DNA from: Escherichia coli
Lineage (GTDB): Bacteria > Pseudomonadota > Gammaproteobacteria > Enterobacterales > Enterobacteriaceae
Length of the DNA: 64,000 bases
Reading direction: 5' to 3' (one strand)
Assembly: GCF_003334315.1 (NCBI RefSeq)
Contig: NZ_QOWR01000019.1
In this document: in pieces, positions 24,920-59,936 of the stretch
Numbering within the stretch: position 1 is the first letter of the stretch
Layout of the letters: every line of letters starts with the position of its first letter
Program-made: the position numbers and the translations under genes
Notes under the pieces: model-generated
Seen by the model: only the letters and a program-made list of their open reading frames with translations
Databases searched by the model: none
What the model was told of the DNA's origin: nothing

Positions 24920-25615
24920 TTAATCACGCTTTTCCAGCAGGGTCCGGTAAATCAGACCACCGATAATGCCGCCGACAATTGGCACCACCCAGAAGAACCA
25001 CAGTTGTTCTAATGCCCAGCCGCCCTGGAAGATAGCAACCGCGGTGCTGCGCGCCGGGTTAACAGAAGTGTTAGTCACCGGAATACTGATTAAGTGAATC
25101 AGGGTTAAGGCCAGACCAATAGCGATCGGCGCAAAACCTGCCGGAGCGAATTTGTCGGTTGCGCCGTGGATCACCAACAGGAAACCTGCACTCAATACCA
25201 GTTCAACTACCAGCGCGGAAAGCATGGAATAACCGCCTGGTGAATGCTCGCCATAACCGTTAGAAGCAAAACCGCTGGCTGCCGCGTCAAAACCCGTTTT
25301 ACCACTGGCAATTAAATACAGCAGCGCTGCCGCAACAATACCGCCGACAACCTGGGCAATTACGTAGCCAACGACTTCTTTTGCCGGAAAACGTCCGCCA
25401 GCCCATAAACCAATAGTGACCGCCGGGTTAAAATGACCACCAGAAATATGACCAACAGCAAAGGCCATCGTCAGAACGGTCAGACCGAACGCCAACGCCA
25501 CGCCGGCAAAACCAATGCCTAATTCCGGGAAGCCTGCGGCCAGTACAGCACTACCACAGCCACCAAAAACAAGCCAGAAAGTACCAAAACATTCAGCTGC
25601 TAATTTTCTGAACAT
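24920..25615 (-). CDS. aqpZ: Aquaporin Z
   Basis: ORF track 24920..25621; start set to the ATG at 25615 ([13 protein letters not shown]...), 231 aa; both NPA motifs present (HFNPAVT, SVNPAR). Confidence 0.93.
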
Positions 25616-35318: not shown

Positions 35319-35523
35319 GTTCACTGCCGTACAGGCAGCTTAGAAAAACCTACCGTCTTGGCTAGCGGTTGCAGCGAACGTTCACTGCCGTACAGGCAGC
35401 TTAGAAAGGAACAATCTTGCAAAGGCTGTGAAAGTTGGCGTTCACTGCCGTACAGGCAGCTTAGAAATTCACAGGTAACATACTCCACCCACCATGTTCA
35501 CTGCCGTACAGACAGATAAAATG
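35319..35523 (+). CRISPR. Orphan (cas-less) type I-F CRISPR array: 3 full 28-bp repeats plus 1 degenerate terminal repeat, 3 spacers
   Basis: Repeat GTTCACTGCCGTACAGGCAGCTTAGAAA at 35319-35346, 35380-35407 and 35440-35467; degenerate copy GTTCACTGCCGTACAGACAGATAAAATG at 35496-35523. Spacers are 33, 32 and 28 bp. AT-rich putative leader at 35170-35318. No cas genes: clpA lies upstream, tRNA-Ser and infA downstream. Confidence 0.92.
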
Positions 35524-56907: not shown

Positions 56908-58338
56908 ATGGCTGGGAATGTTCAGGAAAAACAGTTGCGATGGTACAACATTGCGCTGATGTCTTTTATCACTGTCTGGGGTTTTGGCAACGTTGTTAAT
57001 AACTATGCCAACCAGGGGCTGGTGGTTGTTTTTTCATGGGTGTTTATCTTTGCACTCTATTTCACACCTTATGCGCTAATTGTTGGTCAGTTAGGCTCGA
57101 CCTTCAAAGATGGGAAGGGCGGGGTCAGTACCTGGATTAAACACACGATGGGACCCGGACTGGCTTATCTCGCCGCGTGGACCTACTGGGTGGTGCATAT
57201 TCCCTATCTGGCACAAAAACCCCAGGCAATTCTGATTGCGCTCGGTTGGGCGATGAAAGGCGACGGTTCGCTAATCAAAGAATATTCAGTCGTAGCGTTA
57301 CAGGGGTTAACGCTGGTGCTGTTTATCTTCTTTATGTGGGTTGCTTCACGCGGTATGAAATCGCTGAAAATCGTCGGTTCTGTGGCAGGGATTGCTATGT
57401 TTGTTATGTCGCTCCTGTATGTGGCGATGGCGGTAACCGCGCCTGCAATTACTGAAGTGCATATTGCGACCACAAACATTACCTGGGAAACGTTCATTCC
57501 TCATATCGACTTTACCTACATTACCACTATTTCAATGCTGGTTTTCGCGGTTGGCGGAGCAGAGAAGATTTCTCCTTACGTTAATCAAACGCGCAACCCA
57601 GGAAAAGAATTTCCAAAAGGGATGTTATGCCTGGCGGTGATGGTTGCGGTTTGTGCCATTCTGGGCTCGCTGGCGATGGGGATGATGTTTGATTCGCGTA
57701 ATATCCCGGATGACTTAATGACCAACGGTCAGTATTACGCCTTTCAGAAGCTGGGCGAGTATTACAACATGGGTAATACTTTAATGGTGATTTACGCCAT
57801 TGCGAATACCCTGGGACAAGTAGCGGCGCTGGTATTCTCGATTGATGCCCCGCTTAAAGTGCTATTAGGTGATGCTGACAGCAAATATATTCCAGCCAGT
57901 TTATGTCGTACCAACGCTTCTGGTACGCCCGTTAATGGCTATTTTCTGACCCTGGTACTGGTGGCGATTCTGATTATGCTGCCGACTCTCGGCATTGGTG
58001 ATATGAACAATCTCTATAAATGGCTGTTGAACCTTAATTCGGTAGTGATGCCGCTGCGTTATTTATGGGTATTTGTTGCATTTATTGCAGTCGTTCGCTT
58101 GGCGCAGAAATATAAACCAGAATATGTCTTTATTCGTAATAAGCCTCTGGCAATGACCGTCGGGATTTGGTGTTTTGCCTTTACCGCCTTTGCCTGTTTG
58201 ACGGGGATCTTCCCGAAAATGGAAGCCTTCACTGCAGAGTGGACCTTCCAGTTGGCGCTGAATGTTGCAACGCCGTTTGTGCTGGTAGGATTAGGACTGA
58301 TATTCCCGCTGCTGGCGCGTAAAGCGAATAGTAAATAA
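56908..58338 (+). CDS. ycaM: APC-family amino-acid transporter YcaM
   Basis: ORF track 56716..58338; start set to the ATG at 56908 (MAGNVQEKQLRWYNIALMSF...), 476 aa. Confidence 0.85.
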   Translation: MAGNVQEKQLRWYNIALMSFITVWGFGNVVNNYANQGLVVVFSWVFIFALYFTPYALIVGQLGSTFKDGKGGVSTWIKHTMGPGLAYLAAWTYWVVHIPYLAQKPQAILIALGWAMKGDGSLIKEYSVVALQGLTLVLFIFFMWVASRGMKSLKIVGSVAGIAMFVMSLLYVAMAVTAPAITEVHIATTNITWETFIPHIDFTYITTISMLVFAVGGAEKISPYVNQTRNPGKEFPKGMLCLAVMVAVCAILGSLAMGMMFDSRNIPDDLMTNGQYYAFQKLGEYYNMGNTLMVIYAIANTLGQVAALVFSIDAPLKVLLGDADSKYIPASLCRTNASGTPVNGYFLTLVLVAILIMLPTLGIGDMNNLYKWLLNLNSVVMPLRYLWVFVAFIAVVRLAQKYKPEYVFIRNKPLAMTVGIWCFAFTAFACLTGIFPKMEAFTAEWTFQLALNVATPFVLVGLGLIFPLLARKANSK

Positions 58339-59247
58339 TTATTGTGGTCGGTGACGCTGACTCTGGCAGATCTGACCCGTTTTTACATAATCGAGAAATG
58401 CGCGCAAGCCGCAGGACATATACTGGCGGTTTGGATAATAGATCTGGAAGCCTGGACGCTCTGTGCTCCAGTCTCCCAGTACACATTCTAAACGACCAGT
58501 ATCAAGGTACTCCTTGATCTGTTCATAGAGCAGATACCCGATACCAGCACCCATCAAAACGGCCTCCAGTTCAGCATCAACATCATCCAGAATGATATTT
58601 CCTGCGACAGCAATTTCCAGCTCCTTTGCAAATTGCTAGTGGAAAGGTTTGCCGCTGGGATAACGAAAAACAACACATTGATGATTAAGCAGATCATGAG
58701 GATGGCGGGGTTTGCCATATCTTGCAAAGTACTCTGGCGTTGCTGCTACACATAATTTCACTGGCGGGCCGATCGCCACGCTGATCATATCTTTTTCGAC
58801 GATGCCACTAAGTCGAACGCCAGCGTCAAAGCCCTGTTGGACGATATCGACAAGAGAGTCGTCAGTTGTGAGCTCGACTTTAATATCAGGATATTCACGT
58901 GTGAAACCAACCAGTAAAGGCATTAAAAATATACGTGCAGCTACCCGGGCGGCATTGATTTTGAGCGTTCCTGTCGGTGTCAGACGAAAATCATTCATCT
59001 CATCTAACATGATCTGAATTTCGTCGAAAGCTGGGCGCAATCGTTCATAGAGATTAGAACCCGCTTCCGTTAACGATACGCTTCGGGTTGTCCGATTGAA
59101 TAAGCGAATTTTAAGACGTTGTTCCAGTGTTTTAATACTATGGCTAATGGCGGACGAGGATAAGCCTAATTCATCGCCCGCTGCACGAAAGCTTTGATTA
59201 CGAGCCACGGCAAAGAAAGTGGCAAAGTCAGACATATTCATCCGCAT
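58339..59247 (-). pseudogene. ycaN: LysR-family transcriptional regulator ycaN interrupted by an in-frame TAG (amber) codon
   Basis: Two same-frame ORFs, 58636..59247 (HTH plus N-terminal part, ends ...RYPSGKPFH) and 58339..58557 (C-terminal part). The frame is open between them except for TAG at 58636-58638 (minus strand). 203+1+26+72 = 302 codons, equal to the intact YcaN length I recall. Confidence 0.8.
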
Positions 59248-59346
59248 TAGTGAAAATCCTTCATTAACTCATCCTGAATCATCACGTTTACAGGATTATG
59301 CCGCCTGCGTAAAGTGCGCTCCAGAACTTAACGTGGAGGTAAAATT

Positions 59347-59936
59347 ATGCAGTCTGAACGTATTTATTTGGTATGGGCCATCCTCGTCATGATTCATTGA
59401 CCGCACATATTGCTGATGCGATCCATCAGCGGGCAATGGAGCGGAAAATACAGGTGACGGAACTCGATTTATATCGGCGTAATTTCAACCCAGTGATGAC
59501 GCTGGAAGATGAACCAGACTGGAAGAATATGGATAAACGTTATTCTCCAGAGGTTCATCAGCTTTATTCAGAGCTGCTTGAACATGACACGTTAGTGGTG
59601 GTTTTTCCTCTCTGGTGGTACAGCTTCCCGGCAATGCTAAAAGGATATATTGACAGAGTATGGAATAATGGGCTGGCTTATGGAGATGGGCAGAAATTAC
59701 CATTCAATAAAGTTCGTTGGGTGGCGCTGGTTGGAGGAGACAAAGAATCATTTGTCCAGATGGGCTGGGAAAAAAATATAAGCGATTATTTGATAAATAT
59801 GTGCAGTTATCTTGGTATTGAAGATGCCGATGTCACTTTCTTGTGTAATACAGTGGTATTCGATGGGCAAGAACTTCATGCGAGCTATTATCAGTCGTTA
59901 TTATCTCAGGTACGGGATATGGTAGATACACTATAA
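59347..59936 (+). pseudogene. ycaK: Flavodoxin-like NAD(P)H oxidoreductase ycaK with an apparent 1-bp frameshift near the 5' end
   Basis: ATG at 59347 with upstream GGAGG gives MQSERIYLVWA, then a stop after 17 codons (59398-59400). The rest of the protein (HPRHDSLTAHIAD...) is in the -1 frame and in the ORF track starts only at ATG 59373 (187 aa). One extra C in the GGGCC run at about 59376-59380 would restore a 196-aa ORF with the family motif IYLVWAHP. Confidence 0.75.

Follow-up and report, generated by a model that had tools for sequence, protein, structure and literature searches.

In Escherichia coli K-12 MG1655, ycaN (b0900) is a single 302-codon coding sequence between the convergent gene ycaM and the divergent gene ycaK, and it encodes a putative LysR-type transcriptional regulator. 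ChIP-exo and RNA-seq analyses in K-12 link its product to the adjacent genes ycaC, ycaD, and focA, and its physiological role is listed as unknown (PMC9068703; PMC8464067). All three genes change in expression when ycaN is deleted in K-12 (PMC9068703). In the same strain, ycaM and ycaN are listed as a convergent excludon (PMC12288877). The closest solved structures to YcaN are those of uncharacterised LysR-family regulators, such as 3mz1 (E = 6e-34).

We analysed a window, the whole 64-kb stretch of E. coli DNA, in which ycaN is interrupted by an in-frame amber codon. With a probability of about 0.9, we read the locus as a recent, clone-specific nonsense pseudogene of ycaN that has lost its function. 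Translation of the minus strand between 58339 and 59247 gave 203 sense codons, TAG, 98 sense codons, and TAA in a single frame. The plus strand around the stop codon reads ...aaattgCTAgtggaa..., and the CTA at 58636-58638 corresponds to TAG at codon 204 of ycaN on the minus strand. In the ORF listing of the window, the N-terminal ORF of ycaN spans 58636 to 59247 (203 aa). The preliminary description had reported N- and C-terminal ORFs in one frame, parted by this single TAG, and our retranslation agreed. Its summed length of 302 codons was also reproduced (203 + 1 + 98) and matches the b0900 coding sequence. The features of the locus are as follows.

58339-59247, minus strand: ycaN pseudogene, 302 codon positions plus TAA at 58339-58341; 99.9% identity to the annotated ycaN of strain CP53 and 99.3% to K-12 b0900.
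58636-58638, minus strand: amber TAG at codon 204; ancestral codon TGG (Trp), based on the 81-mer counts given below.
58639-59247, minus strand: ORF of 203 codons translatable from the native start; exact sequence of WP_087894143.1.
59059-59229, minus strand: HTH_1, the LysR-type winged helix-turn-helix (residues 7-63), kept in the truncated product; Pfam PF00126, E = 2.2e-20.
58378-58977, minus strand: LysR_substrate, the effector-binding domain (residues 91-290 of the restored protein); Pfam PF03466, E = 1.8e-33.
58378-58638, minus strand: LysR_substrate residues 204-290, past the stop, according to the PF03466 limits.
58339-58635, minus strand: stranded C-terminal 98 codons and stop of ycaN, beyond the TAG and the same as in intact alleles.
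59271-59296, no strand assigned: dyad ATCCTG-N14-CAGGAT in the 99-nt ycaN-ycaK intergenic region; candidate LysR-type operator, judged from its sequence only.
59287-59315, plus strand: sigma-70-like promoter site TTTACA-17-TAAAGT, overlapping the dyad; candidate ycaK promoter.
59347-59936, plus strand: ycaK, the divergent neighbour (NAD(P)H oxidoreductase), frameshifted; CC at 59378-59379 versus CCC in K-12.

The stop codon of the convergent gene ycaM (58336-58338) abuts ycaN, with zero gap between the two genes. Within the stranded part of ycaN, codon 232 is an ATG (58552-58554) preceded at a distance of 9 nt by GGAGG (58564-58568), and gene callers place a 71-aa ORF there. A fragment translated from this codon would not be expected to contain a functional domain.

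Thousands of complete E. coli genomes gave a match to the 909 nt of the locus, with a best identity of 99.9%, and the matching gene is annotated as ycaN, a LysR family transcriptional regulator. The locus is colinear with b0900 and has ycaM, ycaK, pflA, and pflB as its neighbours. The preliminary description had named the gene ycaN of the LysR family, and this assignment is borne out by the 909-nt match and by the HTH_1 and LysR_substrate domains. Compared with the CP53 gene, the window ycaN has one difference in 909 nt, which is the stop itself (gene position 611, TAG versus TGG). Compared with the K-12 gene, it has six differences in 909/909 aligned nt, codon 204 among them. A chance match is not an issue for an ortholog of 99.9% identity with a single substitution. 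Both alignments are gap-free over the full 909 nt, which supports the earlier proposal of a single nonsense substitution without deletion. Thus, the locus carries an in-frame stop within an otherwise full-length alignment to intact orthologs. In K-12, b0900 is annotated as one ORF rather than two, a point that the preliminary description had left to be checked.

Codon 204 is TGG in the wild isolate cM2a, which is the nearest complete genome, and in CP53 and K-12. An 81-mer centred near this codon matched exactly in 3236/3330 complete E. coli genomes when it contained TGG, in 1/3314 when it contained TGA, and in 0/3314 when it contained TAG. The mutated base is window position 58637 (C to T on the plus strand, G to A in the gene). 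C occupies this position in both cM2a and the outgroup K-12, and T is therefore derived in the window lineage. Taken together, these comparisons confirm that the change is a G:C to A:T transition converting Trp204 (TGG) to TAG, which had been put forward as plausible in the preliminary description. In the comparison with CP53, ycaN 3′ of the TAG was identical to intact alleles, indicating that the lesion is recent.

Unless the TAG is decoded, translation from the native start would terminate at codon 204. The truncated product keeps the winged helix-turn-helix domain, the linker, and LysR_substrate residues 91-203, i.e., the first 113 residues of the domain, and lacks residues 204-290 and the C-terminal tail. 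The missing part amounts to 87 of the 200 LysR_substrate residues (44%). The preliminary description had stated that most of the effector-binding domain is lost, and the Pfam limits do not bear this out. The locus is therefore a YcaN ortholog at the DNA level that encodes an incomplete member of the family, with a LysR-type helix-turn-helix and a LysR_substrate domain cut by the TAG.

The effector-binding fold of LysR-type regulators consists of two lobes joined by crossover strands. Both lobes are completed by its C-terminal segment, which runs back into the first one. The linker helix mediates dimerisation. Since the C-terminal segment is needed for both lobes, we infer that the 203-aa fragment would be misfolded or unstable and would not respond to an effector. 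The allele would thus encode no working sensor. From what is known of the LysR fold, the loss of this part of the domain is expected to be structurally fatal and the allele to be effectively null. The fragment may still retain some activity, as it includes the DNA-binding domain and the linker helix, which counts against certainty about its inactivity.

The window is colinear with the region of approximately 0.89-0.955 Mb of the K-12 chromosome, with 284 differences in approximately 63,500 aligned positions (~0.45%). It differs from cM2a at approximately 10 positions, and the genomes closest to it are those of wild isolates from humans and animals. With approximately 10 differences from cM2a and 284 from K-12, the strain is a natural E. 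coli and not a K-12 laboratory strain. A Shigella origin, which was suspected from the neighbouring pseudogene and IS1, is unneeded, because complete genomes of wild E. coli match 25 kb at approximately 99.98% and share the ycaK frameshift.

Several other differences were observed in the window. It begins inside an IS1 copy (1-453), which is joined to the chromosome in the ybjC-grxA intergenic region, just outside ybjC. cM2a has no IS1 at ybjC-grxA and instead has one in aqpZ, which is absent from the window (the 9-bp target corresponds to window 25367-25375). Between clpA and serW, at approximately 35346-35440, the alignment with K-12 breaks with overlapping pieces, suggesting that the two sequences differ there by a small indel or in repeat number. 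The ftsK coding region at 45124-45354 matches itself at a 39-nt offset with approximately 87% identity, and this is presumably the repetitive ftsK linker region.

Single nucleotide changes were polarized by comparing the window with cM2a, using K-12 as the outgroup. Eight SNPs in the 64 kb were derived in the window lineage (3210, 29156, 31569, 39240, 44077, 51623, 58637, and 59928), and seven of the eight were GC to AT transitions. Seven were located in coding regions: five missense (macA E119K, cydD P469L, ftsK V391L, dmsA A329V, and ycaK A195T), one nonsense (ycaN), and one synonymous, giving six nonsynonymous changes to one synonymous change. This pattern fits the expectation for very recent mutations that purifying selection has still not filtered. 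A mutagenised or mutator strain was also considered and rejected: recent mutations are usually biased towards GC to AT, 7/8 such changes are compatible with this bias, and eight SNPs are too few for a stronger claim.

The divergent neighbour ycaK is inactivated by a −1 frameshift in a C-run that follows codon 11. In cM2a, CP53, and 2018-11-3CC, which are the closest complete genomes, ycaK has this lesion too and is annotated as "frameshifted", and the relatives sharing it still have an intact ycaN. The ycaK frameshift is therefore lineage-wide and predates the ycaN stop. For the window lineage, this order of events weakly suggests that ycaN decayed following the loss of ycaK. A general rule that the regulator decays after its target was rejected. 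It holds in the window lineage only, and ycaN alleles with TGA and ochre codons elsewhere adjoin an intact ycaK.

Three other explanations of the stop have to be weighed against the recent loss of function. A sequencing or assembly error in a strain that truly has TGG would fit the absence of the TAG 81-mer from the complete RefSeq genomes, as well as the single-base difference from the nearest relatives. However, the amber site lies outside any homopolymer, and the allele recurs elsewhere. Contig SAHT01000037.1 (draft GCA_004172665.1), seen in four samples, contains the TAG in 6612 nt of context 100% identical to the window, and the separately assembled Logan assembly of SRR14867000 contains it with 1 mismatch in 5426 nt (99.98%). 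Both contigs also carry the ycaK frameshift of the window. RefSeq lists the 203-aa product under a separate accession, WP_087894143.1, and this exact sequence occurs on 23 contigs in the public protein collection. Because the same TAG is found in independent data sets, an error is very improbable and was rejected, and resequencing is unlikely to remove the TAG. The TAG allele of ycaN is already catalogued in public databases and represents an ordinary nonsense pseudogene. It is also hardly probable that ycaN is still functional through amber read-through, either by a suppressor tRNA or by near-cognate decoding, with a different residue inserted at position 204. Beyond the TAG, the 98 C-terminal codons are intact and in frame, which would favour read-through, but a recent mutation accounts for the intact downstream part equally well. 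The base 3′ of the TAG is C, and TAG C is among the weaker termination contexts in E. coli. A pyrimidine after UAG is weaker for the release factor and yet unfavourable for supE: classical supE suppression, which inserts Gln, is less efficient when a pyrimidine follows. Basal UAG read-through is on the order of 1% or less. Amber suppressors were reportedly found in natural coliforms by Marshall and Levy in 1980. The common ones insert Gln, Ser, Tyr, or Leu and not Trp, and read-through would therefore yield a W204X variant rather than wild-type YcaN; in the 3mz1 alignment, Trp204 pairs with Phe, which is also aromatic. A tRNA scan of the 64-kb window with ARAGORN found serW, a tRNA-Ser(GGA) with a normal anticodon, as the sole tRNA and no CUA anticodon; glnV and the other classical suppressor loci are located outside the window. 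The classical supE44 laboratory strains belong to the K-12 background. The window differs from this background in its mismatches to MG1655, its ycaK frameshift, and its IS1 pattern, and a divergence of approximately 0.45% makes suppression unlikely a priori.

The remaining explanation holds that the stop at codon 204 was selected rather than neutral. The 203-aa fragment, which retains the helix-turn-helix, the linker, and one half of the effector domain, could occupy YcaN operators while being blind to the effector; alternatively, the premature stop could trigger Rho-dependent termination in ycaN, relieve convergent transcriptional interference with ycaM, and raise ycaM expression. When the exact 203-aa product was looked up, at least three further ycaN haplotypes were found to have TGA as codon 204, and three contigs, belonging to different haplotypes, ended within 3 nt of this codon; both findings would favour selection. 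The convergent excludon listed for K-12 and the abutting of ycaM and ycaN without a gap would favour the Rho route. However, this look-up could detect only proteins that terminate at residue 203. As a control, ten hypothetical YcaN truncations at other codons one transition from a stop were looked up in the same collection, and 10/10 were present on 2-36 contigs each, versus 23 for the 203-aa form. A Trp codon has two transition routes to a stop. Other lineages have lost either the entire N-terminal portion or all of ycaN, and these losses speak against selection for the fragment. We thus consider a selected stop highly improbable in either form; for the Rho route to altered ycaM expression, which is likewise very doubtful, the evidence is the geometry of the genes. 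The controls and the restriction of the query to codon-204 stops also led us to reject codon 204 as a mutational or selective hotspot. A Dcm (CCWGG) deamination hotspot was rejected as well, as the local sequence CACTGGCAA contains no CCWGG. We conclude that codon 204 is no hotspot beyond the outcome of very deep sampling of a dispensable gene.

The recent loss of ycaN in the window is in line with the state of this gene in other E. coli. Full-length ycaN (at least 80% of the gene) was found in only 3309/5426 complete genomes, whereas 1068 gave no match, and the remaining genomes, approximately 1,040, kept only the last 113 nt. In O157:H7 strain 2571, the one such genome inspected, a single deletion between pflA and ycaM took ycaK and the first 796 nt of ycaN. 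IS1 is inserted early in ycaN in two complete genomes. In a widespread E. coli allele on a K-12-like haplotype, Leu108 is replaced by an ochre codon (TTA to TAA; codon 108 is at 58924-58926 in the window). The 107-aa product of this allele (P0038) is indexed in 3489 collection blocks, including complete chromosomes, and the 203-aa product is indexed in 54. We infer from these losses that selection on ycaN is relaxed. The TAG would have arisen in a small clone of a commensal-type E. coli lineage in which ycaK was already frameshifted, and would be one of many independent losses of a dispensable ycaN among E. coli lineages.

For annotation, the locus should be labelled as a ycaN pseudogene (internal stop, W204amber) and not as two genes. 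The SNP at 58637 serves as a marker of a small clone within its lineage. Beyond annotation, the importance of this particular stop is very small. Across E. coli, no fewer than five independent types of lesion affect ycaN, and loss of ycaK frequently accompanies that of ycaN. These lesions confirm that the poorly characterised regulator-oxidoreductase pair ycaN/ycaK is dispensable in many natural strains, which is relevant to assigning a function to YcaN.

The closest known counterparts of the window gene include ycaN of K-12. Both have the same synteny (ycaD-ycaM / ycaN / ycaK-pflA), a length of 909 nt, and 99.3% nucleotide identity. The K-12 gene is unlike that of the window in having TGG at codon 204, three amino acid polymorphisms (P110/S, G148/C, and G258/E), and two synonymous differences. 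In the ycaN of E. coli JNEC-KY175 (NZ_AP045171.1, AC0JZ5_RS15890), a nonsense codon likewise replaces Trp204, and PGAP labels the gene an "internal stop" pseudogene. However, its stop is an opal TGA resulting from a third-base G to A change, and the adjacent ycaK is intact, indicating that this was an independent event.

The Leu108 ochre allele shares with the window allele an in-frame, single-base nonsense change that splits ycaN into two ORFs of the same frame. It differs in being a transversion at codon 108 on a K-12-like haplotype, and it is far more common (3489 versus 54 blocks). In the O157:H7-type remnant, the same regulator has been lost and its divergent partner ycaK has been lost as well, but through a deletion that left 113 nt of ycaN rather than through a point mutation as in the window.
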